Of a stretch of 64,000 bases of DNA, positions 5,228 through 45,180 are shown in pieces. The stretch lies in assembly GCA_965248265.1 (NCBI GenBank), contig CBDFJF010000001.1, positions 352,001 to 416,000 of the forward strand, in the 5' to 3' direction. Within the stretch, counting starts at the first letter, position 1. Each line of letters starts with the position of its first letter. Below the pieces are notes generated by a model. It had not been told where the DNA came from and did not search any database. It saw only the letters and a program-made list of their open reading frames with translations. The position numbers and the translations under genes were made by a program. The stretch is from Candidatus Latescibacterota bacterium (GTDB lineage: Bacteria > Latescibacterota > UBA2968 > UBA8231).

Positions 5228-5619
5228 CTACAACGATGCCCCCAACACTCTTGTCACTTCTCGCGATGTGACTTCCTCACAGAAGGGGTCTTGATCCCAT
5301 ATGCCGGCAGGCTTTTCACAAAAGAATCCCCGATTATGCCGAAAACTGCAATCGCGTTCTTGTTCAACTTGTAAACTGAAGGACCGATAAGGGGTCACTG
5401 TCAATAGACTATATCGGTTGAGGCTTGGAGTCGAGTGGGATGGGAGCTTGTCTGGGTGCGAATGGGTATTCGGCGGCATTGCGAACATGGATTCAGGGCG
5501 GGCTGGTATTTCAATGCTCGAACACGTGGAGGAAGGTCTCAAGTCCCTCGGCCTGAAAGGACGCTCCGTCACCTGCTTTCTTCCGTGTCTGAGTGCGCAA
5601 ACCACGGATCGAGGTCAGC

Positions 5620-8600
5620 TCACACTGAGGTCTTCCTCACCGATTCCAGCACGCTCAACACCGAGTCCATGTCGAACGAATCGACGTGGGGCTTGAGCAG
5701 TGCGGCCAGCTTCGCTTCATCCTCGCTCGCACACGCCATCTCCGCAATCACCAAGCGCAGTTCGGTTACATTTGCCACCTCAGCGGCTGCCCGCACACGC
5801 TCGTGCAGGTCAGCAGAAACTGTAGTCGATTCCAAGACCGCCGGTCCGGCCTCTTCGGGCGCGGCCTGATTCGCCGTTTCCTCAAATGCGACACCCAGCA
5901 TCTGCTCGAGGCACTGACAAATTTGGCCAACCCGTACCGGTTTGCCGATGAACTCGTCGAAGCCAGCCGACAGGTAGTGTTGCCGCTCGTGTTCCAGAGT
6001 TGAAGCGGATACGGCGACAATCTTGAGAGCCAGGTCCGGGTCCGCTACGAGTTTCCGCATAGCCTCCATGCCATCCATCTCGGGCATGCGGATGTCCATG
6101 AATACGATGTCCGGTCGCTCACGTCGACTGATCTCGAGCGCTTCGATACCGTTGACGGCGGAGTGCACTTCGACACCGATCGCCCCCAGCAACTGCTCCA
6201 GAATATCCCGGTTCTCGGGCACGTCATCAGCCACCAACGCTTTCACCTGACAGCCGCCAGCCAACCGCCTGACGCGGCCATAGTCTTCTTTGTGCTCGCG
6301 CACTCCTCCTGCCGCGGTCGAAAGCGGCAGAGTGAAGTAAAAGCGTGTGCCTTCGCGAGACGATTCAAACTCCAGTTCCCCACCCATCAAGTGTACAAGA
6401 CGGCGCGAGACGGCCAGGCCCAAGCCTGTCCCTCCGGTGTCCCTGCCTGCCTCTCCTTGCTGGAACGGCTGGTACAGTGTTTTCTGTTCCTCTTCCGAGA
6501 TCCCTCTCCCGCTATCGATAACCTCGAAGAGATAAGTCTCACCTCCAACCTGCGCGACGCGCAGCGTTACGTCTCCTTCCTGCGTGAACTTCACCGCGTT
6601 GCCCAACAGGTTGATCAGCACCTGCATCAACTTACTCTCATCGCCATATACCAGAACGTGTGACTCTTTCAAACTCTTGAGCTTCCAGCCCAGCGCCTGC
6701 TCGCGGCATCGTAGCTGGAACATCTCTGACACACTCTGCAGTAACCTTACCAGGTCGAAGTCGACGGCGTGAACATCCATGCGGCCGGCTTCGATCTTGG
6801 AGATATCCAGTACCTCGTTGATCAACCTGAGCAGGTGATCACCACTCGCCTGGATTGTTTCCACAGCCTGTCGATGGTTGTCCACCAACTCCGGACTGCT
6901 TTGCATGATCTGCGCATACCCGATGATGGCATTCATCGGGGTCCGGATCTCATGGCTGATATTGGCCAGAAATTGCGACTTCGCCTGGCTGGCCAGTTCG
7001 GCGGCCTCCTTGGCCTCCAGCAGCCCGGCGTTGGACTGTTCGAGCTCGGCGATGAGGCGATTCTGGGCATCCGCGGCCTCGGTGAAGTCCCGGTAACGTG
7101 CGTGCGCGAGGTCGACGACTTCGACGAAATCCTCTATGCGGGCGATCTCCCAGTTGCTGAAGGGCTCTGCTTGTCCACGCCAACCGCGGCGCACACAGAT
7201 GACGCCTGTTTCGAATGGAACGTCCAGAGCCCACACCGTGCCTGATGCGGCCAGTCCCACGTCAGCAGTACCCGAAAGCGGCGCCCACACCTCTTTCTCT
7301 CGAGGATCCATCTGTCGTGGTTTGGGTACGCCCGTGCGTGCCTCTGCCAGGAAACGTCCAACCTCATCCGGGTCCGAGATCGTGGACCTCTGCAACGCGC
7401 CCGCCGAGTCGACCTGCAACGCCTCGACGTGCGAGGTACCCTTCGGCGTGCACAGGGTGAGCTGGTCGAAATGCAGGCCGACGACCAGCAGTTCGTCCGC
7501 AATCTGGGCAAGCACTGTCTGCAGGTGCTCCGGCTGTTTCATATCGAGCACGGTTTGCCGTACGCGCTCCCGTGCTTCCTCGATGGTGAGGCTGCGTAGA
7601 TGCCCAGCGACCTCCTCGTCCTGAGTCTGAACGCTTTCCAGGACGTGGCTGGCGACGGAACGTCCAGCAACATTGAGGACCTCGGCAAGCACCCGCGGTC
7701 CGCCGACCTCCTGGTGTGCGCCCGGCACATTGCGAAGGGTGTGTTCGAGGTCTTCCTCGATATCCTTCAATACTGAGGGAGTCACGTTTTCCATGGTCGC
7801 CATCCGGTACGACACATCAGCCTGCAGGCGTGGTGAGAGCTGGGCCAGCATGGCTCCAGACTGTCGCGGATCCACTTGCGAGAGGATGAGAGCGATGGTT
7901 TGGGGGTGCTCGCGTGAGATGTGGAGGGCTACGTGCTCAGGGCTGATGTTCTTGAGGATGTAGGTGCCCGATGACGCGGTGCTGGTAACGCGCGCAAAGA
8001 TCTCATCCGCCTTGCGCCTTCCGACAGCATGCTCCAGAGCGTTCCGGGTGAACTCGGTGCCTCCGCTTGCCATCCAATCGCCAGAGCGCAGACGCCCAAC
8101 GAACTCGTCGAGCTCACGGGCGTGAATCTCGGCGGACACGTTCTGTAACGCCGCCATGGACTGGGAGACCACTTCAATCTCGTAGTCGGACAGGAGCTTG
8201 AGGATCTTTCCAGTCAACTGCTCACCGAGCCCGACCAGGACGATGGCAACCTTGACCATTGACGGCAGTTCCTCTGAGGGTGAATCAGCGTTTTCCTCGA
8301 GGGCCATGGTGCGAACGATCCGAGCAGCGTCAGCGATGTGGTGGGCAACAAACTCTCTCGGCGTCAGTGTCGCCTGGTCGATCTCCTGCCGGGGGGTGGG
8401 TGGCGCTGGTTCGCCTGCAGTGCCGCCGGTCGATTCGTCGGACAGCGGTTCCGTGTCGGCAGCTGGCGGCGGGTGTAATGCGTGTTCGGCAACGCCGGGC
8501 ACGAACCTGGGTGCAGGCTGGAGCCTGGGGGAGCCCGGTTGTCGGCTCGCGGCGAGCAGTGAGGCGGACAGGCTCCATGCCGGTTCCGGGTAGGGTGGGG

Positions 8601-8715
8601 GAAGTGGCATGGCGTCCACCTCCGTCAGGGTCAGTGGCAGCCAGTCGGCGACGGTCGCCCGCGCTGTCCTGCCAGCGGCGAGTCCCAGGATCCGTGGCTC
8701 AGTCTTGGGAGTCAT
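5620..8715 (-). CDS. FliG(N/M/ARM-C)-GAF-like-HisKA-HATPase-REC fusion; soluble hybrid histidine kinase
   Basis: FliG segment [10 protein letters not shown]...[12 protein letters not shown]...VGGPRV. Kinase motifs: H-box [19 protein letters not shown]-box [11 protein letters not shown]1 DSGRGI, G2 [12 protein letters not shown] motifs: [17 protein letters not shown]. No TM helix seen. Confidence 0.9.
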
Positions 8716-9791
8716 TGACGTTTCTCCTCACCCGCCGCGATCTCGACCGCGCTTTGCGCCAACCGAAAGCCGATGTGCTCGTTCGCATGGTCCTGCGGCG
8801 CGCTGTTGCGATGGATCGTCCTCACGTTGGGACGGGTCTCGGCATAAAAACCGCCCCGGATTACTCGCTCTTCGCCCGTGTCGGGTCCCTGTGGGTCCAG
8901 GTCAGGACTGTATGGGTAGTAGTTCGACTGGTAGAAGTCAGCGCACCACTCGTAGGCGTTGCCGGCCATGTCCCAGGCTCCGTATGGGCTACGGCCAAGG
9001 GGAAACTCATCGACCGGGGTTGTCGTGCCCACGAGATTGTTGGAATTACATCGTTCGCCATCGACGAAGTGATTCCCCCACGGGTAGAGGCGTCCGTCGT
9101 TGCCGCGGGCTGCCTTCTCCCATTCCGCTTCGGTCGGCAGACGTTTGCCGCGCCATCGGGCGTACTCATTCGCGTCTTCCCATGAGACGTTGACGACCGG
9201 ATGCCTCGACGTGCCCACGGGGTATGTTCCGTCGTGCCAGGCAGGCGGGGCGCGGTGTGAAGTGGCGTTCACGAACTCCTGGTAGCTGTGGTTGGTCACG
9301 GGATAGGCGTCGATGTAGTAGGGTGACATATCTAGTGTGTGAGTGGGTCGCTCGTTGTCCGGGCTGTCGCCTTCGTTGCTACCCATGACGAAGGAGCCGC
9401 CCGGAACGGCTACCATGCCCATCACGTCTTCCATCAATTCTGGTCCGCGCTCGATGGCTTCATAGGCGATGGTTTCGCGAAAGGCTCGAGTGATGCCAGA
9501 TGCCTCCGGCGCAGCGATCTGCTTGATCCTGCAACTGATCAGGTCGCTGCCGACGACGATGTCCCCATGGGCGAACAAGCGATCGTTTACTCGTACATCG
9601 TAGGATCGTCCTACGCGCTTGTTGAGCGTGATAAGGCCGCCGGGCTGCAGCTGCGCAAAAGCGTTCAGGCTCATCTGTAAGCGGCCGAGCTCGACCCTTA
9701 CTTCAAAGCGGATATCTCTGAGATGAGCCAGATTGCCGATTTCACGATCGACCATCTCTCTGGCGTCCGCTTCCGTAATCTTGCTGTTCAT
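8712..9791 (-). CDS. FliM/FliN C-terminal (SpoA) domain fused to an FGE-sulfatase/SUMF1-like domain
   Basis: N-terminal [12 protein letters not shown]...[13 protein letters not shown] (SpoA). C-terminal [43 protein letters not shown] and GFR (FGE fold). Confidence 0.88.
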
Positions 9792-10093
9792 CAGACGGCC
9801 CCATCCCTTACGATTTCGGTTACGCGCACCCCGAAGTTCTCGTCTACGGTAACCACCTCTCCCCGCGCTCGGACTCTGCCGTTGAGCAGGATGTCGATCG
9901 GCTCGCCCACGGCTCGTTCAAGCTCGAACAGGGAACTGTCCCCAACCTGCAGCAGTTGATCCAGCGTACAGTTCGTTCGTCCCAGCTCGAAGGCAACGGT
10001 CACTTCCACATCGCGCGTGAAATCTTCGACCGCTGACTCCTCTTTCCGCGGGGGTTGTCTTTGCGTTGGAGTATGCTTGTCTTTGCCAGCCAT
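9791..10093 (-). CDS. fliN: Flagellar motor switch protein FliN homolog
   Basis: DVEVTVAFELGRT...GEPIDILLNGRVRARGEVVTVDENFGVRVTEI, a classic FliN SpoA domain. Confidence 0.9.
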   Translation of the reverse strand: MAGKDKHTPTQRQPPRKEESAVEDFTRDVEVTVAFELGRTNCTLDQLLQVGDSSLFELERAVGEPIDILLNGRVRARGEVVTVDENFGVRVTEIVRDGAV

Positions 10094-10128: not shown

Positions 10129-11094
10129 TCACTCGTTAGCGAGTGGCTGTAGCGCCTCGGGAATCTTCCCCACGGCTTTCACGGCGATGCGTCCGTTGTC
10201 CGTGGCGAACGGTCGCACGTAGAACTTGGGCAATCCTCCCACGCGCAGGATGAGAGGTTCGGTTGTCTGCGTGTCGCAGCAGATGATATCATCGACCTGC
10301 AGGCTGTCTACGTCGGCCAGGGGCAAACGCTTGCGCGCCATCTCGACGGTGAGCGGCAGTTTCACGGGGCCCAATGCAGCGCGGCTGCGCCGAGTCGCCT
10401 CCTCCTGTTCGCGGCGCCCACGGCGCACGTGGGTCTGCTGGCCAAGGAGCGGCAGGATCGACTCCAGGGTGAGGTAGGGGTAGCAGAGGCTCACCAGTCC
10501 GGATGCAAGGGGCGAATTCACCTCGAAACCGAGCACGACGACAATCTCGGCGGCGGCGGTCGTGTCCATGAACTCCGGGTTCGTTTCCAGTTCGATATCT
10601 GAGATTTCCACCGGCAGGATCGGGTGCCAGGTGTGCTCCAGATTCTCCACCACGCGCTTGACGAACTTGGCGATCACACCCATCTCGATCTGTGACATCT
10701 GTCGCTCATCGACGCCCTCCGACGAACCCTTCCCTCCGAACACGCGGTCGACGGCGGAAAAAACGAAAGGCATGGAAAAATCGAGAATGGCCTGGCCATT
10801 CGTCGGACCGAGCATGAACTGATAGGAACAGGACGGGTTTGACAAGGAGGTGATGAAATCAGCGTAGGTTTTCTGGGCAATGAAGGCTGTGTCAACGTCG
10901 ACGACGTCACGCATGGACGCGGAAAACGTCGAACTCAGCTGCCGCGCGAAGTGGTCATGTAAATTCTCCAGGGTGCGTAACTGATCCGTGTTGACCTGGG
11001 CGGGGTGCCTGAAATCGTAGGTAGCAACGATCCCATGCGATTCAGTTTCTGTCGGTGTACCATCGGTCACTGCTGTATTTGGAGTGTCACTCAT
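10129..11094 (-). CDS. fliM: Flagellar motor switch protein FliM homolog lacking the N-terminal CheY-binding peptide
   Basis: YDFRHP, LENLHDHFAR, FGGKG (GGxG), ETNPEF and a C-terminal SpoA-like region. RBS GGAG precedes the ATG at 11094. Confidence 0.88.
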   Translation of the reverse strand: MSDTPNTAVTDGTPTETESHGIVATYDFRHPAQVNTDQLRTLENLHDHFARQLSSTFSASMRDVVDVDTAFIAQKTYADFITSLSNPSCSYQFMLGPTNGQAILDFSMPFVFSAVDRVFGGKGSSEGVDERQMSQIEMGVIAKFVKRVVENLEHTWHPILPVEISDIELETNPEFMDTTAAAEIVVVLGFEVNSPLASGLVSLCYPYLTLESILPLLGQQTHVRRGRREQEEATRRSRAALGPVKLPLTVEMARKRLPLADVDSLQVDDIICCDTQTTEPLILRVGGLPKFYVRPFATDNGRIAVKAVGKIPEALQPLANE

Positions 11095-12646
11095 GCCTTG
11101 CTCCTCCTGGCGTGGTTTCTGCAGCCGTCCTGTGCAAGTCCGCAGGGTCAACCTCGTTGCGCAACACCCGGTACAACCGGTTTCGGCTCGTTCCCAGCTG
11201 ACGCGCCGCCTTCGTCACGTTGCCATCGCTCTGCTGCATGGCCACGCCTACCACCCACTTCTCCGCGCACCGCACAGCCCGATCCAGGTCCAGCGGCAAG
11301 TCGGGAGCCCCCGGACTCCTGTCACCTGAATCTCCACCTTCGCCGTCCGTCGTCGCTCGCGGAACGCGCAAGAAGTGCAAGTGATGCGGCAGTACTTCAA
11401 CGCCCCCACTCTCGATCAAGGCGCGCTCCATGAGGTTTTTCAGCTCGCGCACGTTTCCCGGAAACCGATATCGTTGCAGAATTTCCACCGCATCCAAGCT
11501 GAGATCCGGTACCTCGCGCCCCATCTCTTCCGCGAACAGCTTGAGGAAGTGGCGCGCCAGAATCGGAATGTCCTCCGTGCGCTCTCGCAGCGGCGGTGAG
11601 GTGACCGTGAACCGCGCCAGCCGGTAGTACAGATCCTGCCGAAAGCTCTTCGCCTGGAGCCGCTGTTGCAGCTCGACGTTTGTCGCCGCCAGCACCCGCA
11701 CCGCCACCTTCTTCCCCTCGGTTGCTCCGATTCGCCACACAACGCCGTCCTCCAGAACCCGCAGTAGCTTGCTCTGCAGCTCCAGTGGCATGTCGGCGAT
11801 TTCGTCCAGAAACAGCGTGCCGCCGTCGGCGATCTCGAAGAATCCGAGCCGGTCGTCACTGGCACCTGTGAATGATCCCCGGTTATGTCCGAACAGGGCC
11901 GATTCGACAAGGTCCGCCGGAATGGCCGCGCAGTTTACGGGCACGAAGGGCCCATCCTGCCTTGCCCCACCGAAGTGGATGGCCCGTGCGATCAGCTCCT
12001 TGCCGGTTCCACTCTCACCAGTGATCAGCACCGAGGTCATCGGGCTGTCCTGCATCAGATGGATCTCTTTGAAGATTCTCTGGATGGTAGCGCTCTGTCC
12101 TACGAAATCCTCCAACCCCCAGCGTACAGCTTCGCGCTCGGAAATCATCGATAGACGTCCCTTGAGCGCCTTCCGCTGGACGATCTCAAGCTCCAGCTCT
12201 CGATTGGTCTCTGCGAGTGCCGCATTCTTCCTCTGCAGTTCCGTCGCCAGCCGGCTCAGTCGCACGTGCGTTTCGACTCGAGAGAGAACCTCCTCTTCCT
12301 GGAATGGCTTGGTGATGTAGTCGACCCCACCGGCCCTGAAACCGGCAATGACATCCTCTTTTCGGTCTCGGCCGGTCAGGAAGATGACGGGAATCCCGGC
12401 GGTCTCTTCAGTTTGCTTGAGCCGTCTGCACACTTCGTATCCATCCATCTCGGGCATGACCACATCCAGCAGTACGATGTCCGGCTGGCCCCGTACCGCT
12501 ATATGGAGAGCATTCTGTCCTCTGGTTGCTACCATTACGCTATTATTCGCTGCCTCGAGAAGCTCGAGGAGGACTTTGAGGTTCGTCGGATTGTCATCGA
12601 CAATGAGGATTCTCGCTCCCCGCGGAGTGGATTGTGGCTCAACCAT
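11087..12646 (-). CDS. NtrC-family sigma54-dependent response regulator (REC, coiled coil, AAA+, Fis-type HTH)
   Basis: ILIVDD...LLDVVMP...KPF, Walker A GESGTGKE, GSFTGA loop, LFLDEI, FPGNVREL, and HTH GNVTKAARQLG. Confidence 0.93.
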   Translation of the reverse strand: MVEPQSTPRGARILIVDDNPTNLKVLLELLEAANNSVMVATRGQNALHIAVRGQPDIVLLDVVMPEMDGYEVCRRLKQTEETAGIPVIFLTGRDRKEDVIAGFRAGGVDYITKPFQEEEVLSRVETHVRLSRLATELQRKNAALAETNRELELEIVQRKALKGRLSMISEREAVRWGLEDFVGQSATIQRIFKEIHLMQDSPMTSVLITGESGTGKELIARAIHFGGARQDGPFVPVNCAAIPADLVESALFGHNRGSFTGASDDRLGFFEIADGGTLFLDEIADMPLELQSKLLRVLEDGVVWRIGATEGKKVAVRVLAATNVELQQRLQAKSFRQDLYYRLARFTVTSPPLRERTEDIPILARHFLKLFAEEMGREVPDLSLDAVEILQRYRFPGNVRELKNLMERALIESGGVEVLPHHLHFLRVPRATTDGEGGDSGDRSPGAPDLPLDLDRAVRCAEKWVVGVAMQQSDGNVTKAARQLGTSRNRLYRVLRNEVDPADLHRTAAETTPGGARHE

Positions 12647-12659
12647 CTTTATCCTCCAA

Positions 12660-12675
12660 TGCAATGCCTGTACCA
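12660..12675 (-). promoter_or_regulatory. sigma54 -24/-12 promoter candidate for the ntrC-fliM-fliN operon
   Basis: Minus strand reads TGGTAC-AGGCA-TTGCA versus consensus TGGCAC-N5-TTGCW. Caveat: the implied start site is only a few nt from ATG 12646. Confidence 0.6.
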
Positions 12676-12774
12676 ACTCGACTGGATGCTGGCTTTATAT
12701 ATTGTATTTAATTGAGTTATGACATTTTAAAAGGAGTTCGTATGCCCACTGGAATCGTACCGAATTCGTAGCAG

Positions 12775-32403: not shown

Positions 32404-33444
32404 CTACACGAAGGTGTCTTCGGCGCTGCCGCGTACGATCTGAATCTGACCCTGGTCCTCCAGCTGGCGGACCTTCTGGACGATGCGCAGTTGCACTTCC
32501 TCGACCTCGCTCAGTCGCATCGGACCGGTGAATTCCATCTCTTCTTCGATGAAGCCCCGGACACGATCGGACATGTTGGTGAGAAGTTTATCCTTTACCT
32601 CTTCGCTGGCGGCCTTGAGTGCGATGACCAGATCCTTCTGCTCTACTTCGCGCAGGATCGTTTGCACTTCTCGGTCGGTCAGTTTGTGGATGTCGTCGAA
32701 GACGAACATCATGTTGCGGACGATTTCAGCCACTTCTGGATCCTGAGCGTCGAGTCGGTCGAGGACATTCTTCTCCACCGAACCGCCGGTCAAGTTGAGA
32801 ATGTCGGCGACTACCTTGGGACCACCCACATCCTGATTGCCACCCAGGATGTCACGCAGGTTGGCCTCGAGGCTCTCCTCAATCTGCTTCAACACATTAG
32901 GCGTGATGTTTTCCATCACCGCGATCCGGTAGGCGACTTCGGCCTGAATACGCTCGGGTAGCTGGGCGATGATGCCGGCCGCCTGCTGCGGCTCCAGTTG
33001 CGACAGGATCAGGGCAATCGTCTGTGGGTGTTCATGTGAAATGAAGGGAGCAAGCTGTTCGGGGGGCACGTTCTTGAGCAGGTAAAACCCGGAGCTGACC
33101 GTGCTCATGATCCGGTCGAGAATCTCTTGAGTCTTGCGCGGGCCGACGGCGCGCTCGAGGGCGCCGCGAGCGAAATCGACGCCGCCCTGGCTCATGTATT
33201 CGCCAGCCAGCAAGTGCTGCTCGAAATCGGCCAGGACCTCGTCCTGGAGCTCGATCGGCAGATGCTTTAGTTCGGTAATGGTGTGGGTAATGTCCTCGAT
33301 CTCGTAATCAGTCAGGTACTTCAGAACCTCCCCGGCGTTCTCCTGTCCCAGGGCGACCATGAGTACGGCGACTTTCTGGCGTGGATCGAGGCCATCGTCC
33401 TCGCCTGCGGCCAGTTTCATGTCATTCTCCGGTCCATATTCCAT
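32404..33444 (-). CDS. fliG: Full-length flagellar motor switch protein FliG homolog (orphan)
   Basis: [29 protein letters not shown] and NMSDR..FIEEEME..GPMRLSEVE; RBS GAGGT. Confidence 0.93.
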   Translation of the reverse strand: MEYGPENDMKLAAGEDDGLDPRQKVAVLMVALGQENAGEVLKYLTDYEIEDITHTITELKHLPIELQDEVLADFEQHLLAGEYMSQGGVDFARGALERAVGPRKTQEILDRIMSTVSSGFYLLKNVPPEQLAPFISHEHPQTIALILSQLEPQQAAGIIAQLPERIQAEVAYRIAVMENITPNVLKQIEESLEANLRDILGGNQDVGGPKVVADILNLTGGSVEKNVLDRLDAQDPEVAEIVRNMMFVFDDIHKLTDREVQTILREVEQKDLVIALKAASEEVKDKLLTNMSDRVRGFIEEEMEFTGPMRLSEVEEVQLRIVQKVRQLEDQGQIQIVRGSAEDTFV

Positions 33445-33577
33445 TTTGGTAACCTCGCTCAGAATAAACGTCCCCATGCACAGAAAAATATTTCCCTGCA
33501 TAGGCACTCGGTACGCCGCTTTGTCTTGTCCTTGTAGGCCGATCGATAGCCGATCCGCAGGGACTTGCCCATCACCT

Positions 33578-33593
33578 TGCAAACGGGGGGCCA
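33578..33593 (-). promoter_or_regulatory. sigma54 -24/-12 promoter candidate for the orphan fliG
   Basis: Minus strand TGGCCC-CCCGT-TTGCA, about 135 bp upstream of the start codon. Confidence 0.55.
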
Positions 33594-33687
33594 AGGTGTG
33601 GCCGTCGAGCCTGGCCATGCGACTGAGAAAGACAGGCAGAACACTAGCGTAGGGTTAATGTCCGCAGTCGCTTAGGTCAATTTCGCC

Positions 33688-38952: not shown

Positions 38953-41900
38953 ATGACACATCCTCCTCCCCCCGTGTTGCGAGTTTTGCCCTTTGTTATT
39001 GGTGCTGCCACCCTTTTCCAGAGCGGCGTGGAGGCCAAGATAGGCCTTAAGCCGTCGGCTTTGCCGACTCCTCTGTCGCAACTCTACACAGAGCCACCCG
39101 CCAATGCGCCGCTGACGTCGCGCGGACCGGGAATGTTTCGCAGCCGGGCCACCAAGCCGCTACTGGAGCTTTCGTCATCGTTCACGGACAAGCGGGTAGT
39201 CGTGGATCCCACCGGCGCTCATTATACGCCCCACGCCGCAGGGTTTCCCACCGGTCCGACGATCACGCTGCCGCTCGAATCCTACCTAGGGTTGGGGCAT
39301 TCGCTGATGTTCCAACGCCGTTGGCGCGAAACCGTGCGGTCCGAATTTTCCCGGGCCGCCGCCCGTCAACAGCGTCAAGGGAAATCGCGTCTTGAATGGC
39401 GTGTGCCGCTACCTGCGCCGAAACCGTTGCGCCGGTTTATCGGCGACGAGGGACAGCTGAAGATCAACGGCAAGCACACGGCGACGATCGGTGGCAAGAG
39501 CCAGTGGACGGCTGGGGAGGTGCGCACGCTGGCAGGCGGTCCGTCCAAGTTTCCGGCACTGACCATGGATCAGGAGTCGCAGTTCACGGTCGAAGGCAAG
39601 GTCGGTGAGGCCATTAACATCCGTATAACACAGGATACCCAGCAGTTGGGAACGTCCTTCAGGGATCAGCTGGCCAATCAAATCAAGCTGGACTACAAGG
39701 GAGACGAGGACGCCGTATTCCAGGAGGTGCAGGCAGGCAACACCACGCTGGCCTTGCCCAGTACTCGCTTCGTCGGCTTCAACCAACAGCACAAGGGCTT
39801 GTTCGGCATCCGCGCCAGGGGCCGCCTCGGACCCCTCGGGTTTACGACCATCGCCAGCCACGAAAAGAGCGAGAGCAAGCGCAGCACCTTTCGCGGCGGT
39901 GCGCGCGTGGACACGATGACGATAAAAGACTACGAGTACCTGCCGCGCACCTATTTCTTCCTCGACCCTGTCTACGGCGAGCGCCTGGAAGACTATCGTG
40001 AGGTGGCGCGGGCGCGGCCCCAGGATTTCAATCCGGCCGACATAATCGACGAGCGCAGTCTCGAGGTCTACATCAACGACTTCAACGTCAACAACGACCC
40101 CGAGCAACTGGCCAAACAGGGAATCGCCTGGGTGGATGCTGAGTACACTGCGAATCGGGTTAACGGTACCTGGGGTCAGCACGAGATCGACGAATCAAGC
40201 GGCTACTTCGAACAAGGTACCTGGCATCGCCTGGATCCCGATGACGACTACGGTCTGGTGGCAGAGCTGGGGTATATCGTCATGCGCACACCCATCGCAG
40301 AGAGACACTCGCTGGCAGTGCGGTACCGCACCGTCGGCAGCGCGGCAGCATCCGTCGCCGGGGAACAATTTGGCGATACCCGCGGTGATACTCTACAGCT
40401 CAAGCTCATCCAGGCGCGCGATTCGCGCCCCAACTTTCCGACCTGGGACCTCGAGTGGCGCAATGTCTATCGCATAAGTCGCAGCTTTGCCCGCGGCAAG
40501 AAGTTCGAAGAGGACAAGATCCGCGTGCAAGTCCTCAAGGAGGTGGCCGGTCGTGAACCGCAGACGTCGCAGGACGGCAAACGCTATCTGCAGATCTTCG
40601 GAATCGACGAACACGGACAGGATCCAGGCACCCCCCCCGACCAGATAATCGATGCCGATTATATCGGATTGGATGGCGTGCGCGGGGTTTTGATCTTTCC
40701 CGCCCGCAAACCGTTCGCCCCGGTAGAAGGGGCCCCGGGATTCGGGGAGTTGCAGGACACCGTAGAGGAGATCTACACCAGTCAACAGGACCGGGACAAG
40801 ATCGAGGCCAGCACGTACCTGATACAGGTTGTCAACAGCTCCGGACAACAGCGTATCAACCTAACCCAGGGGCGCCTGGCCGGTGTCGATCCAGAGTCCG
40901 TCGACGTGCGCCTCAACGGCAAATCCTTGACGCGCGGGAAGGACTTCCGGGTGAGTTTCAACGGAGAAGTCACCTTCATGGGCCAAGCACAGTCGTCGGT
41001 CTCCGATCCAGGCGCGGACTTGGAGATCAGCTTCGAGTCTGAGGACCTGATCGGCATCGGGGGGCAGCAGAAGACCCTCGTCGGCATGCGCACGGAGTAC
41101 GAATTCTGGGAAGGGGATGGCAGCATCGGGACCACGGTCCTCTACAACAACGAGCGCAGTTCGGACAAGAGAGTCCGTGTGGGCCGCGAGCCGGCTCGCA
41201 CCATCGTTTGGGATACCGATCTGCGAGCGAATTTCGAGGCCCCGATCCTGACGCGCATTGTCGATGCCCTGCCGCTGTTGAAGACGGCTGCCGCGTCGAA
41301 GGTGACGGTCCAGGCCGAAATCGCCCAGAGCCGACCCAACCTGAATACCCGCGGACAGGGGTACATCGACGATTTCGAGGGCAGCGAGCGACCGGAGATC
41401 CTCAGCATGTTTCGAACCCGGTGGACGCCGGCTAGCATACCCGAAGATTCCGGTCTCGACGAGACCAACCGCGGTCGAATGATCTGGTTCAACCCGCTCA
41501 ACAAGGTTTCACGCCTTGAGATCTGGCCGCAACAGGAAGGTCAGATCGACTCGCGCAATAACGACATCGATATCCTGGTGATGGAGTTGACGGGCGGCCG
41601 TCCATTGGAGCCGTCCTGGGAAGGGCTGATGACCCCATGGACCGGAGGCGTCAGAGATTTCTCCCAGTCAAAATTTCTCGAGATATGGGCCCGTGGCGAC
41701 GAGGGGAGCGTGCACATCGACCTGGGCGACATCAGCGAAGACTACACCCGCCGTGAGCTGGATGAGGGTGACATGGCCGTGCTCTCTCTCGAGGAGAAAC
41801 TGGCCAAGTTGAGGACCGGGGACCGCAAGTTGGACACCGAAGACAAACCGCTGCCTGGACGGATCAGCGGTGACGGCGTGGCTTCGATCGAGGAGGACAT

Positions 41901-44900
41901 CGGTATCGATCGACGCACTGACGAGCAAGAACTGAACTTTTATCTGGCTCTTGCTGACGCCGATACCAGCGGTTCAATAGAAGACCGGCGCCAACTTTTT
42001 CGCGCAATCGAAGAGTACTCCGGTCGCCGGGCCGTAGATCCGGAGGGTGACAACTGGGACTTCAACGAACGCAACTACGATCAGATCAACGGAACACAGG
42101 GAAGCGGTCGCAGCGAGACGCAACGCCCCGATTCTGAGGACATCAACAACGACGGCATCGTCAACACCGCCAACAATTACTTTCACCATACCATCGATCT
42201 GGCCAACGACGAGCACGTTCCAGGCACGCGGAGCCTCTCAGGCTGGAGGTTGTTTCGACGACCATTGTTCGACGGCGCAGTGAAGCGCATCGGCTCTCCG
42301 GATTCGAGCCGGATCGAGTCCGCCCGTATTCTGTTCGTCAACGACGGAGCAAGTCTGGATGAGGTATCTCGGCTCGAAATCGTCCAGCTGGAAATCATCG
42401 GCAACGACTGGCAGGAGAACGACATCTTCACGTTCGGTCAGGAAACAGACGTGATCGGAGACACCGAAGAGATGTTCAACGTCGCCATCATCGGCACCGA
42501 CGAGAACGCCGACTACGAGCCGCCGCCGGGAATCAAGTTGCGCCGACTCGGCAGTTCCCGAACCAGGGAGCGGGAACAGTCGCTGGTGCTGGATTACGAG
42601 AGTCTGTTGCCGCAACATCAGGCTTCGGCCTCAAAGGTATTGTCAAGCAACAGCGACTACACCAAGTACACCCGCTTGCGCATGTTCGCGTATGGGGATA
42701 CCGCCGATGTCTCTTACGTCACCAGCGACACCACCAGCGACATCCAGTTGTTCGTACGATTCGGTCGCGACAGTGCCAACTACTACGAGTTTGCCACGCC
42801 GGTGTTTCCCAAGTGGGACCGGCGCAACTGGGTCGATGTCGACCTGCTGACAATGTCTCAGCTCAAGGCGCAATTGCAGAGGCAGCCGGAACTCGACTCA
42901 CTTGCCACCGTCATCCGGGATCCAGCCGTGCGTGATGGCTTGCCGGCCGTCTACCTGGTGCGCGGCAATCCATCCATGCAGCAGATCAAGCAGTTGACTG
43001 TCGGGGTGCGCAACACCAGTGAGATCCACTCCTATACCGGCGAGGTCTACACCGACGAGTTGCGCCTCGACGAGGCGCGCAACGATGCCGGACTGGCTGC
43101 TTTCGTGCGGGTGAACACGTCGCTGGCCGATTTCATGAGCGTCGACGGGTCCGTGGATTGGCAGTCCCAGGATTTTCGGACATTAGCAAACACAGCCCGA
43201 AAAAGTGAGGACATGCGTACGAGTTTGACGACGACGACGAACGTCCATCGCTTTCTGAAGGGAACGTGGGGTTTCTCGATACCCGTCAAAGCCACTCTCA
43301 GCCGCAACGTCAGTCTTCCGCGTTTCGGGCCGAACTCCGATGTCGAGTTGCTGTCGAACGAACGGGATTCCCTGCGCACTCAAACCACTAAGCAATTCTA
43401 CGAAGTGTCGATGAGCAAGCGGAAGGGGAAGGCCTGGTACACGCGCTGGACCATTGACCAGATGAGCATGAGGATGTCGTCGTCGACGGAACGCGGAAGG
43501 TCTCCCGTCGTCGAGCGCAGCAGCAAGCAGATCAAGACGGGTTCGTTCAAATACCAGGTGCCGTTTCCGAAGACGGCTGGCCGCTTTCTCGAGTGGTTGC
43601 CAGAGTACATGCCGAAGGGAATGCGGAGGGCACGGTTGAAGTATTTCCCCTCGAATCTGTCCTACACCATGAATGCCAACAAGACGGATGAGTTCTCAAA
43701 GCGAACGACGGATCCGGCACCCACGACGCGCGATGCCTTCGAGCTCAAGGAGACCTACACTTCCAAGTTAAATCCCCTCAGCATCGTCGCTGGCGACTAC
43801 AGCCTGCAGGTGACCAGGGACCTGCGCAAGAAATACGATCTTCAGAAACTGAGCTTCGGGCGTGAGGTAAAGCGCAACCAGAAGACGGGTCTCAAGATGA
43901 CACCGCGGTTGATGAGCTGGTTCGATCAGAACTATTCGTTCCAGGCGACCTACGAAGAAAACAGCGATCCACGCAGCCGGCGCACGAGCGCCGTGACGGA
44001 TTCGGTGACGGGGTCGATCATCCGTACCCGGGACATCACGACCAAGAACGAGCTCAACGCGCGCTGGAATCTGAAACTGCCGACGCTGTTGAAAGCGGTC
44101 GGCAAGCCGGCGGGTAAAACAAGGGGGGCTGTGCCCAAAGCCAAGAAGAAGGATACGGAGGACAAGCCGCAGGACAAGAAGGATCGGGACAGAAAGCCAT
44201 TGTTCTTGCGACGGTTCGTGTTCTTCTCAGCGGCGTACGTCGATCCATTGAGCAGCTCGTGGCGACGCAACGTAACCTCACGCAGCTTCAACCTGGTCGA
44301 TCGTCCCTCTTTCATGTACCAGATAGGCCTGGAGGATAATCTTGGGGTGTCGAGGGCGGGAACCGGATTGACCCAGCAGGACAGCTGGAGTCGCGGCACC
44401 ACGACCGAAACCGCTTCAGGGTTGAAGCTGCCATTGGGTGTCAGCGTCAAAACGAGCTTCAAGCGCAATCTTACCAAGCGCAGCGGCAGCACCCAGACTC
44501 GGCTCCGGGTTGAGGAAGACACCAAATTCCCGGAAATAAACGTAAACTGGGGCCGAGCTAATCGATTGCCGTTGCTCCAGCGGTATCTCAACAGCGCCCA
44601 GGTCAACGTCCAGTTCAGGGAGTCGCAATCGAAACAGGGCGAGGGCAGCATTCAACCCCGAAGTCTGCTCCAGAGGGGCACGAATCAGGAATTCTCCGGT
44701 TCATGGACCGGTCAATGGCGATGGGGGCCGGCCACGACGATTCGCTCGTCACGCAGCAACGGCGAGGACATTGACTTTGAATTGCCGACCATCGATGACG
44801 AGGCTGATGATCAGGGACTGGACCTGACTCCGCGCGTGAGGGGGCGTGGGTTGACGGAGCGCAACAATCACAGTCTCGAAGTCAAACACAATCTACGACC

Positions 44901-45180
44901 ACGTTCATTGCCGTTGTTCGGTCAGTTGAAGAGCAATGTGGATTTGCGTCTGAAGTTCGAATTGGAGGACGAGATCCGCTCCAGCGCCACGGGCGACGAG
45001 GAACAGGCGCCGATATCGATCACGGAGCGCTGGCGCTTCGAGTTCAAGGCGGATTACAAATTCAGTGACCTTTTTCGCGGCGGTGCCTTCATCCGGGCGG
45101 AGAACAACACGGATGGGCTGACGTCGAGAACGCGCAAGGTGCGTGAAGTTAAAGTGTCAGGCATTTTCCTCTTCAAATAA
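38953..45180 (+). CDS. sprA: SprA/Sov-like outer-membrane protein (T9SS translocon homolog)
   Basis: 2075 aa with a signal peptide; NQIKLDYKGDED..QEVQAGN..L.LP, GLFGI, YIDDFEG, WFNP, IDLGDISED, LDTED and DELRL; beta-strand-rich C-terminus. Confidence 0.85.
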   Translation: MTHPPPPVLRVLPFVIGAATLFQSGVEAKIGLKPSALPTPLSQLYTEPPANAPLTSRGPGMFRSRATKPLLELSSSFTDKRVVVDPTGAHYTPHAAGFPTGPTITLPLESYLGLGHSLMFQRRWRETVRSEFSRAAARQQRQGKSRLEWRVPLPAPKPLRRFIGDEGQLKINGKHTATIGGKSQWTAGEVRTLAGGPSKFPALTMDQESQFTVEGKVGEAINIRITQDTQQLGTSFRDQLANQIKLDYKGDEDAVFQEVQAGNTTLALPSTRFVGFNQQHKGLFGIRARGRLGPLGFTTIASHEKSESKRSTFRGGARVDTMTIKDYEYLPRTYFFLDPVYGERLEDYREVARARPQDFNPADIIDERSLEVYINDFNVNNDPEQLAKQGIAWVDAEYTANRVNGTWGQHEIDESSGYFEQGTWHRLDPDDDYGLVAELGYIVMRTPIAERHSLAVRYRTVGSAAASVAGEQFGDTRGDTLQLKLIQARDSRPNFPTWDLEWRNVYRISRSFARGKKFEEDKIRVQVLKEVAGREPQTSQDGKRYLQIFGIDEHGQDPGTPPDQIIDADYIGLDGVRGVLIFPARKPFAPVEGAPGFGELQDTVEEIYTSQQDRDKIEASTYLIQVVNSSGQQRINLTQGRLAGVDPESVDVRLNGKSLTRGKDFRVSFNGEVTFMGQAQSSVSDPGADLEISFESEDLIGIGGQQKTLVGMRTEYEFWEGDGSIGTTVLYNNERSSDKRVRVGREPARTIVWDTDLRANFEAPILTRIVDALPLLKTAAASKVTVQAEIAQSRPNLNTRGQGYIDDFEGSERPEILSMFRTRWTPASIPEDSGLDETNRGRMIWFNPLNKVSRLEIWPQQEGQIDSRNNDIDILVMELTGGRPLEPSWEGLMTPWTGGVRDFSQSKFLEIWARGDEGSVHIDLGDISEDYTRRELDEGDMAVLSLEEKLAKLRTGDRKLDTEDKPLPGRISGDGVASIEEDIGIDRRTDEQELNFYLALADADTSGSIEDRRQLFRAIEEYSGRRAVDPEGDNWDFNERNYDQINGTQGSGRSETQRPDSEDINNDGIVNTANNYFHHTIDLANDEHVPGTRSLSGWRLFRRPLFDGAVKRIGSPDSSRIESARILFVNDGASLDEVSRLEIVQLEIIGNDWQENDIFTFGQETDVIGDTEEMFNVAIIGTDENADYEPPPGIKLRRLGSSRTREREQSLVLDYESLLPQHQASASKVLSSNSDYTKYTRLRMFAYGDTADVSYVTSDTTSDIQLFVRFGRDSANYYEFATPVFPKWDRRNWVDVDLLTMSQLKAQLQRQPELDSLATVIRDPAVRDGLPAVYLVRGNPSMQQIKQLTVGVRNTSEIHSYTGEVYTDELRLDEARNDAGLAAFVRVNTSLADFMSVDGSVDWQSQDFRTLANTARKSEDMRTSLTTTTNVHRFLKGTWGFSIPVKATLSRNVSLPRFGPNSDVELLSNERDSLRTQTTKQFYEVSMSKRKGKAWYTRWTIDQMSMRMSSSTERGRSPVVERSSKQIKTGSFKYQVPFPKTAGRFLEWLPEYMPKGMRRARLKYFPSNLSYTMNANKTDEFSKRTTDPAPTTRDAFELKETYTSKLNPLSIVAGDYSLQVTRDLRKKYDLQKLSFGREVKRNQKTGLKMTPRLMSWFDQNYSFQATYEENSDPRSRRTSAVTDSVTGSIIRTRDITTKNELNARWNLKLPTLLKAVGKPAGKTRGAVPKAKKKDTEDKPQDKKDRDRKPLFLRRFVFFSAAYVDPLSSSWRRNVTSRSFNLVDRPSFMYQIGLEDNLGVSRAGTGLTQQDSWSRGTTTETASGLKLPLGVSVKTSFKRNLTKRSGSTQTRLRVEEDTKFPEINVNWGRANRLPLLQRYLNSAQVNVQFRESQSKQGEGSIQPRSLLQRGTNQEFSGSWTGQWRWGPATTIRSSRSNGEDIDFELPTIDDEADDQGLDLTPRVRGRGLTERNNHSLEVKHNLRPRSLPLFGQLKSNVDLRLKFELEDEIRSSATGDEEQAPISITERWRFEFKADYKFSDLFRGGAFIRAENNTDGLTSRTRKVREVKVSGIFLFK

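Follow-up and report, generated by a model that had tools for sequence, protein, structure and literature searches.

Passages of two papers describe a kinase tied to FliF and FliG and paired with a sigma54-dependent regulator in Campylobacter (FlgS/FlgR), Vibrio (FlrB/FlrC) and Pseudomonas (FleS/FleR), and state that the activity of the FlgSR-type checkpoint kinase requires FliF, FliG and the export apparatus (PMC3760246; PMC7064773). In parts of two further papers, engineered or mutant FliF–FliG fusions from Salmonella and Vibrio are described as assembling into rings (PMC6079021; PMC10941966). Here we describe a gene in which the N-terminal portion of FliG and a hybrid histidine kinase form one chain. 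The gene lies in a stretch of 64,000 nucleotides from a Candidatus Latescibacterota bacterium (assembly GCA_965248265.1, contig CBDFJF010000001.1, positions 352,001 to 416,000 of the forward strand), and this whole stretch is referred to below as the window. In the encoded protein, a GAF-fold domain and a complete kinase core take the place of the FliG torque domain from the MFxF hinge onward, and the gene closes an operon that also encodes a FliM, two FliN and an NtrC-type regulator. The architecture and its conservation, the operon, the fold of the replacement domain and the FliF-like peptide described below are established directly. On balance, we lean towards the view that the protein belongs to an input module that derives from the flagellar switch complex, is independent of the membrane-supramembrane (MS) ring and drives a two-component, sigma54-dependent output.

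An earlier note on this DNA, made from the letters and their open reading frames (ORFs), had recognized a FliG part with a kinase in place of the torque domain, and both Pfam matches and BLASTP bear this out. Its interpretation is supported in part, namely for the replacement of the torque domain at MFxF by a GAF-fold domain and an intact hybrid kinase. The surrounding FliM/FliN operon and the N-terminal extension had been overlooked: the note began the protein at 8265, which is residue 151, and 150 residues were thereby omitted. The domains follow one another in the protein in the order given here, after the entry for the gene.

5620-8715, minus strand: whole FliG–kinase fusion gene, 1031 residues; its ATG overlaps the stop of the upstream FliN–FGE gene by 4 bases
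8536-8715, minus strand: N-terminal motif RILG...WxPP...YP, residues 1-60, conserved in the fusion family and in the truncated FliG of an extracytoplasmic function (ECF) sigma factor module
8272-8370, minus strand: peptide resembling the FliF C-terminus, residues 116-148, directly before FliG_N (profile search and BLAST)
7972-8268, minus strand: FliG_N domain, residues 150-248 (Pfam PF14842, 2.5e-28)
7723-7941, minus strand: FliG_M domain, residues 259-331, with invariant EHPQTIA and R304 (Pfam PF14841, 3e-26)
7585-7713, minus strand: ARM-C of FliG, residues 335-377, with LRSLT at its end where FliG has MFxF
7081-7584, minus strand: GAF-fold domain, residues 378-545, of a family without a Pfam model (fold prediction and Foldseek)
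6985-7080, minus strand: signalling helix, residues 546-577, joining the last GAF helix to the first DHp helix
6784-6984, minus strand: HisKA/DHp domain, residues 578-644, with H588 (Pfam, 6e-22)
6319-6645, minus strand: HATPase_c domain, residues 691-799 (Pfam, 4.7e-29)
5911-6237, minus strand: receiver domain PF00072, residues 827-935, with D830/D831, D874, S903 and K925 (Pfam, 8.5e-23)
5623-5883, minus strand: C-terminal helical tail, residues 945-1031 (whole-protein model)

The clearest view of the breakpoint comes from a comparison with a full-length FliG encoded in the same window.

32404-33444, minus strand: full-length FliG serving as the comparator, from a set of five near-identical paralogs (32404-33618 in the BLASTP comparison)

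The two proteins are 43% identical (BLASTP, E 3e-73), and their alignment is free of gaps over residues 155-375, as the earlier note had seen by eye; gaps appear only from the hinge, the first of them at the position where the paralog reads MFVF. MFxF is the hinge of FliG. Of 14 solved FliG chains, five (8z4d, 3usw, 3usy, 1lkv and 4fhr) have a best-matching stretch that closes at query residue 375-377, three continue weakly to 392-412 and the remainder span shorter parts; in the two alignments printed, residue 377 stands opposite the M that opens MFxF. As aligned, the homology to FliG extends as far as residue 377, where the hinge begins. Consistent with this end point, no match to the torque domain FliG_C (PF01706) was found beyond residue 326, the only Pfam signal for it being one weak stretch at 254-326 (6.1e-05) that overlaps FliG_M, and the fusion scores 172.1 bits with TIGR00207, below the cut-off of 226.7, whereas the comparator reaches 340.8. 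The same breakpoint, LRS[LF][TS] followed by xEEAxERV, is common to all 12 aligned members of the fusion family. Breakpoints scattered at random among homologs, which the note had named as a reason to abandon its reading, are thus not what is found. In the whole-protein AlphaFold model, a single helix (367-390) spans the joint between FliG and the GAF domain.

The replacement domain is GAF-like in fold. AlphaFold2 predicts it with a mean predicted local distance difference test (pLDDT) score of 92.9 from a 19-row alignment, and the first 24 Foldseek matches in the PDB are all GAF or GAF-containing structures with template modelling scores of about 0.4-0.6, 11 of these GAF matches having E<=0.001; ranks 25-26 are two LuxR-type receptors. 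The label given in the earlier note therefore holds for the fold and fails for membership of the Pfam family, since residues 366-575 match no Pfam family at E<=5, the GAF model included. Among 1.84 billion representative proteins, 81 relatives of residues 376-570 were found, the best of them other FliG–kinase fusions. Many of the 81 match in two or more stretches, with a maximum of 15. Six non-fusion proteins carrying the module were scanned: two have HAMP upstream and HisKA/HATPase downstream, and the other four are without any Pfam family. In unrelated kinases of the phylum, the opening helix of the module reads like ERAVERVRAEVTAMK. Since the counterpart of this helix lies here at residues 379-393, the acquired module, judged by this correspondence, begins within about two residues of the end of FliG. 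The family, for which Pfam has no model, also shows conserved DVPF...G and ARYxDF motifs and occurs before kinase cores; in P0127, P0128, P0131 and P0136, it forms tandem arrays within large proteins that otherwise lack Pfam matches.

On the kinase side, a single helix (531-605) runs in the whole-protein model from the GAF domain into DHp. In the 12-sequence family alignment, H588 is invariant and N706, D734/G736/G738 and G762-A768 of the N, G1 and G2 boxes are nearly so, as are D830, D831, D874, S903 and K925 of the receiver. The intact H-box histidine near 588 and the receiver aspartate near 874 that the note had picked out are thus confirmed, H588 as invariant and D874 as nearly invariant. 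Its description of the tail as lacking histidine needs correction, because histidines are present there, though none is conserved. The tail matches no Pfam family at E<=1, Hpt included, and its best sequence match in the PDB is a designed protein at E 0.32. Its Atlas neighbours are unnamed; among clusters that have a Pfam family, the closest is an Hpt cluster at 0.79, and values of this size often arise by chance. That the tail is a degenerate Hpt is a guess.

The 12 members of the family comprise the window's protein, a copy in the genome G098, four proteins from the search of representative proteins and six homologs (from JGI, ENA, Logan and NCBI) that have the same Pfam architecture and are 43-53% identical. 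Five of the six homologs cover about 98-99% of the length and the sixth, P0007, which NCBI labels Candidatus Latescibacterota, covers 56%. Mean pairwise identity is 0.52 in FliG_M, 0.48 in ARM-C, 0.38 in the GAF domain, 0.72 in the signalling helix, 0.80 in DHp, 0.60 in the ATPase domain, 0.65 in the receiver and 0.39 in the tail. The FliG part is not decaying: conservation in FliG_M and ARM-C is no lower than in the GAF domain, and the relaxed selection that the note had considered is not seen. Within the FliG part, E269-Q272, R304 and G219 are invariant and G218 is nearly so; we take these stretches to be the EHPQR motif and the Gly-Gly linker. A tree of the FliG parts with 20 rows, namely the 12 fusions and eight paralogs from the genome of the window with none left out, requires two changes for the fusions and is compatible with a single origin; it is poorly resolved, as only three of its 17 inner branches are well supported, and FUS_P0129 and the FliG of the ECF module sit on long branches.

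These data bear on whether the gene is real. An assembly chimera or a decaying pseudogene could account for an odd arrangement of domains, and the ATPase domain is indeed missing or split in two relatives. We find this explanation hardly credible, given that 1031 codons are open with all catalytic motifs present, that twelve sequences from several sources have the architecture in common and that Logan contigs from four runs cross 6900-8300 without differences. These contigs are 14.7-17.9 kb long, and all stem from a single sample, which the genome itself may have come from. The assembly junction near 7590 about which the note had warned is accordingly not seen.

The same figures bear on a second alternative, in which the FliG part is only a scaffold, a dimerization device or a localization tag, and a ligand of the GAF domain controls the kinase as in ordinary GAF-kinases. 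The GAF module does occur before kinase cores that lack FliG (in two of the six non-fusion proteins scanned and in further ORFs) and in tandem arrays, and conservation within the protein peaks in the kinase core and signalling helix (0.72-0.80). However, it is higher in FliG_M and ARM-C than in the GAF domain, the FliM-contact motifs are invariant, dedicated FliM and FliN genes have been retained in the operon across three genera, and the junction helix is predicted to be continuous. An inert FliG part is, on this evidence, improbable. In the switch-derived module that we favour, the FliG part would instead take part in the input, and two further sets of observations, on the N-terminal extension and on the operon, speak to this role.

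The extension omitted from the earlier note consists of two recognizable elements. A profile of the N-terminal motif built with the window's protein left out recovers the window's fusion at E 5.6e-10 and the FliG of the ECF module at about 1e-3. The N-terminus of FliF was considered as a source of this motif and ruled out, as the profile has no match to FliF. The second element resembles the other end of FliF. A profile of this region from ten other family members, with the window's protein again excluded, was searched against all 40,294 ORFs of the genome, and its first match is the last 25 residues of the sole FliF (481-503; E 1.3e-9). The next matches are residues 116-148 of the window's fusion (3e-7) and the FliG of the ECF module (0.002), and the FliG of a third module is not significant at 0.35. 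FliF of this genome ends in QQMVRERPEDAAKLIRTMLVEDTA. By BLAST, the FliF tail has 64% identity over 33 residues with the peptide of P0002 and 47% over 43 residues with that of P0003. Helices at 119-139 are predicted with pLDDT 65-85 in the whole-protein model, and the ring-building domain of FliF (YscJ_FliF, PF01514) has no match in the fusion ORF. Parts of one paper, citing Lynch 2017, describe FliG_N and the FliF tail as folding together (PMC8956890). In the fusion, the FliF-binding groove is probably filled by the FliF-tail-like peptide of the same chain. Because this peptide is carried in cis, the fusion probably does not sit on the MS ring, which is the template of FliG rings; this tempers the note's inference that polymerization is kept.

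The genes upstream of the fusion are tightly packed on the minus strand in the order sigma54 regulator, FliM, FliN, FliN–FGE and FliG–kinase, with the fusion last.

11087-12676, minus strand: NtrC-type sigma54-dependent response regulator, first gene of the operon, with a likely start at ATG 12646 after GGAGGA
10129-11151, minus strand: FliM paralog with FGGxG kept and without the N-terminal CheY-binding peptide
9791-10093, minus strand: FliN paralog of 100 residues
8712-9791, minus strand: FliN fused to an FGE-sulfatase-like domain (Pfam FliMN_C 23-92, FGE-sulfatase 124-345)

The regulator combines REC, Sigma54_activat and HTH_8 and is an operon partner of the fusion in three genomes; with the NCBIfam FlgR model it scores 257 bits, far from the cut-off of 750, and it is not classed as FlgR. 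The gene order recurs in G098 and G094, the two relatives with enough flanking sequence, and in G150 the fusion lies on a 5-kb contig that is too short to show it. The FliN–FGE fusion is also found in G094, and the second FliN of G098 is plain, with no FGE part. Binding of FliM by the fusion is plausible, because a FliM is encoded in the same operon and has the conserved FGGxG stretch, which is kept in all six FliM paralogs compared. A peptide of the LSQDEIDALL type, which we take to be the N-terminal CheY-binding peptide of FliM, is present in the flagellar FliM and in the module FliM of G094 and absent from the module FliM of the window and of G098. In G094, the module FliM (locus 5280-6674) has this type of peptide followed by a linker of about 120 residues. 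The FliM ORF of the window opens with a TTG at 11151 and shares 65 bases (11087-11151) with the end of the regulator gene; an internal ATG about 20 codons downstream may be the true start. The FGE part of FliN–FGE is a cytoplasmic domain of the FGE-sulfatase/EgtB/GldK-like kind.

A candidate promoter of the operon was rejected.

12660-12675, minus strand: sigma54-promoter-like motif TGGTAC-N5-TTGCA, just upstream of the regulator's likely start, at chance level

The motif is oddly near the likely start codon; transcription from it would leave out the Shine-Dalgarno sequence, and it is not used as evidence. With a consensus pattern, the window holds four such motifs against 2.17 expected, and four or more occur in 17 of 100 shuffles; genome-wide there are 170 sites, 16 of them perfect.

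The genome as a whole (7.32 Mb in two contigs, C1 and C2) has one FlhA, one FliF, ten flagellin matches and nine FliG_M proteins. The sole strong YscJ_FliF match is at C2:4116948-4117460. The main flagellar cluster (C2:4102001-4121500) reads FliF > FliH > FliI with no fliG between, and it contains the sole FliF and the sole FlhA of the genome. Five plain FliG paralogs are dispersed (window 32404-33444, C1:265586, C1:710486, C1:1502012 and C2:750807), are 72-95% identical among themselves (three of them at about 94%), have no neighbouring genes in common and are without the N-terminal extension. The comparator, which the earlier note had called an orphan FliG, is one of these five. A sister module at C2:1677730-1681347 encodes an ECF sigma factor, a zf-HC2 anti-sigma factor, two FliN, a 363-residue FliG and a FliM. 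By Pfam, its FliG has only FliG_N and FliG_M; it ends in LRKLG at the hinge position, followed by a short acidic tail, and it has the RI[LF]G...WxPP motif and the FliF-like peptide in common with the fusion. Because this FliG ends at the hinge beside the ECF sigma and anti-sigma factors, the unit of FliG_N, FliG_M and ARM-C is used without a torque domain beside transcription regulators. A third module (C2:272854-275667) keeps the torque domain and has a similar N-terminal extension; in G098, this module and the fusion operon are about 5 kb apart. Among metagenomic relatives, P0023 and P0029 (922-942 residues) unite FliG_N, FliG_M, FliG_C, FliM and FliMN_C in one protein. Elsewhere in the window, an ORF of 2075 residues lies at 38953-45180 on the plus strand. 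A sigma54-like sequence, TGGCAT-N5-TTGCT, occurs at C2:3826444 (minus strand), about 200 bases upstream of a match to the flagellin N-terminal domain, and is the only such motif in the flagellar regions scanned.

This inventory allows a third alternative, the main rival of our reading, to be weighed, in which the fusion is a subunit of a real rotor, placed among FliG or docked to FliF, and reports assembly or rotation to the sigma54 regulator as a hard-wired checkpoint of the FlgS/FlgR type. A kinase fused to FliG and encoded with a sigma54-dependent regulator is what such a checkpoint would look like, an export gate is present in every genome that bears the fusion, and one flagellin gene has the sigma54-like motif upstream. 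The main flagellar cluster is without fliG; therefore, the FliG of the rotor must come from the dispersed paralogs. Yet a subunit seated on FliF would need neither a FliM and two FliN of its own nor a mimic of the FliF tail in cis. Flagellated close relatives also lack the fusion, among them G099, which belongs to the genus of G098 and is assembled in one contig, and of 29 sigma54-activator-like ORFs none was found beyond 3.78 Mb of C2, where the flagellar cluster lies. We consider a place in the rotor rather unlikely.

The mechanism that we propose for the switch-derived module treats the fusion as the subunit that provides the output of a switch-like complex, paralogous to that of the flagellum and no longer producing torque. 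With the FliF-tail-like peptide in its own groove, the fusion would fold and act away from the MS ring. FliG_M would bind the FliM of the operon, which would in turn bind both FliN paralogs, the plain one and the one with the FGE-like domain. The last helix of ARM-C would pass straight into the first GAF helix at the MFxF position, and the last GAF helix straight into the DHp helix. A change of state in FliM, FliG_M and ARM-C, or a ligand of the GAF domain, could then set the balance of autokinase and phosphatase activity in a dimeric hybrid kinase. The phosphoryl group would reach the co-operonic NtrC-type regulator and so control sigma54-dependent genes, with the attached receiver acting as relay or sink. 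We infer every binding step, the regulation of the kinase, the cognate regulator and the input signal from the arrangement of domains and genes; that the switching motion would control the kinase, we likewise only infer.

Several observations weigh against this proposal. The peptide of the window's own fusion is the most diverged of the FliF-like peptides (37.5% identity over 24 residues, BLAST E 0.01). A complex prediction of residues 100-148 with FliG_N (149-255) gave a score of 0.45 against 0.00 for the best of three controls, with at least 78% of contacts agreeing between runs and a partner pLDDT of at least 58. The pass mark is reached by 58 of 80 solved complexes and by two of 110 mismatched pairs; scores of 0.60 or less include only seven of those 80 complexes, yet both of the passing mismatches. 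The predicted complex thus lends the peptide's binding weak support, and the pass may reflect likeness only, or memory, because FliF-C/FliG-N complexes have already been solved. FliG_N is the least conserved folded domain of the family, with a mean pairwise identity of 0.34. The whole-protein model from the 12-row alignment has a mean pLDDT of 70.8 and a predicted template modelling score of 0.36, at which the packing and arrangement of domains are unreliable. No Hpt domain for an onward relay was found in the tail by Pfam or PDB searches, which makes the proposed path from the kinase to the regulator less certain. Differences in the CheY-binding peptide suggest that the input of the module may differ between genomes. 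P0007 is without the ATPase domain, and in G094 the fusion gene is split in two inside it, which may be a frameshift error, the assembly being in 560 contigs, or decay. Distribution is patchy, with the fusion in four of 168 genomes of the phylum, from one family and four genera. All four have the flagellar export gate (FlhA) and 6-12 FliG_M matches, and because of this, the phyletic pattern cannot separate an MS-ring-independent module from a role in a real flagellum. As to other phyla, a pattern search of genome contigs with the kinase H-box is uninformative: among the matches listed (at least 80 loci), all align from query residue 422 onward and are generic hybrid kinases.

A broader generalization is quite possible, though we offer it tentatively. 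The Latescibacterota family may hold MS-ring-independent assemblies derived from the cytoplasmic (C) ring and reused as a signal-processing scaffold for the control of transcription. The unit of each assembly may be a FliG with its own FliF-tail mimic, a dedicated FliM and two FliN. Three output forms may coexist in one genome: one with the torque domain kept, one cut at MFxF beside an ECF sigma and anti-sigma pair, and one with a GAF-hybrid kinase beside a sigma54 activator. If the proposal is correct, the cooperative conformational switch of FliM and FliG would have been co-opted as a phosphorylation input, and the activity of the kinase would be a direct biochemical read-out of the state of the switch. 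Research on flagellar switching has as a central question how a change in FliM and FliG_M passes through the MFxF hinge, and the direction of rotation is normally its only read-out; with a histidine kinase joined to the hinge, the same movement could be followed in solution as an enzymatic activity. Flagellar switch proteins would, in a first case of this kind, form the sensory end of a two-component system, and the FliF tail in cis, the hinge-truncated paralog and the FliN–FGE fusion would point to a wider, undescribed reuse of the C ring outside motility. If the fusion works in a real rotor instead, it would be a hard-wired assembly checkpoint of the FlgS type, whose sensing mechanism is still unknown. 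In the full-text literature, with subscription journals and domain-architecture databases outside the scope of the search, no description of a FliG–kinase fusion or of C-ring paralog modules in this phylum was found.

The locus can be compared with four kinds of known system. Like FliG, the fusion has FliG_N, FliG_M with EHPQ and the conserved Arg, the Gly-Gly linker and ARM-C; unlike FliG, it lacks the torque domain, carries a kinase in place of the stator-contacting domain and has an N-terminal extension with a FliF-tail-like peptide. It resembles the FliF–FliG fusions of Salmonella and Vibrio in having the FliF C-terminus and FliG_N in one chain, although those keep the whole ring-forming FliF and here there is only a tail of about 25-35 residues. 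With GAF-containing hybrid histidine kinases, it shares the GAF fold, signalling helix, HisKA, HATPase_c and receiver in the same order; it differs from them in an input end made of flagellar switch scaffold, in a GAF family without a Pfam model and in a tail in which no Hpt was found. With FlgS/FlgR, FlrB/FlrC and FleS/FleR, it shares a sigma54-dependent partner regulator. In those systems, however, a separate kinase senses the MS ring and rotor, whereas here the FliG domains are part of the kinase chain and are accompanied by dedicated FliM and FliN and a FliF mimic. By this comparison, the locus would encode a two-component system with an unprecedented input end.

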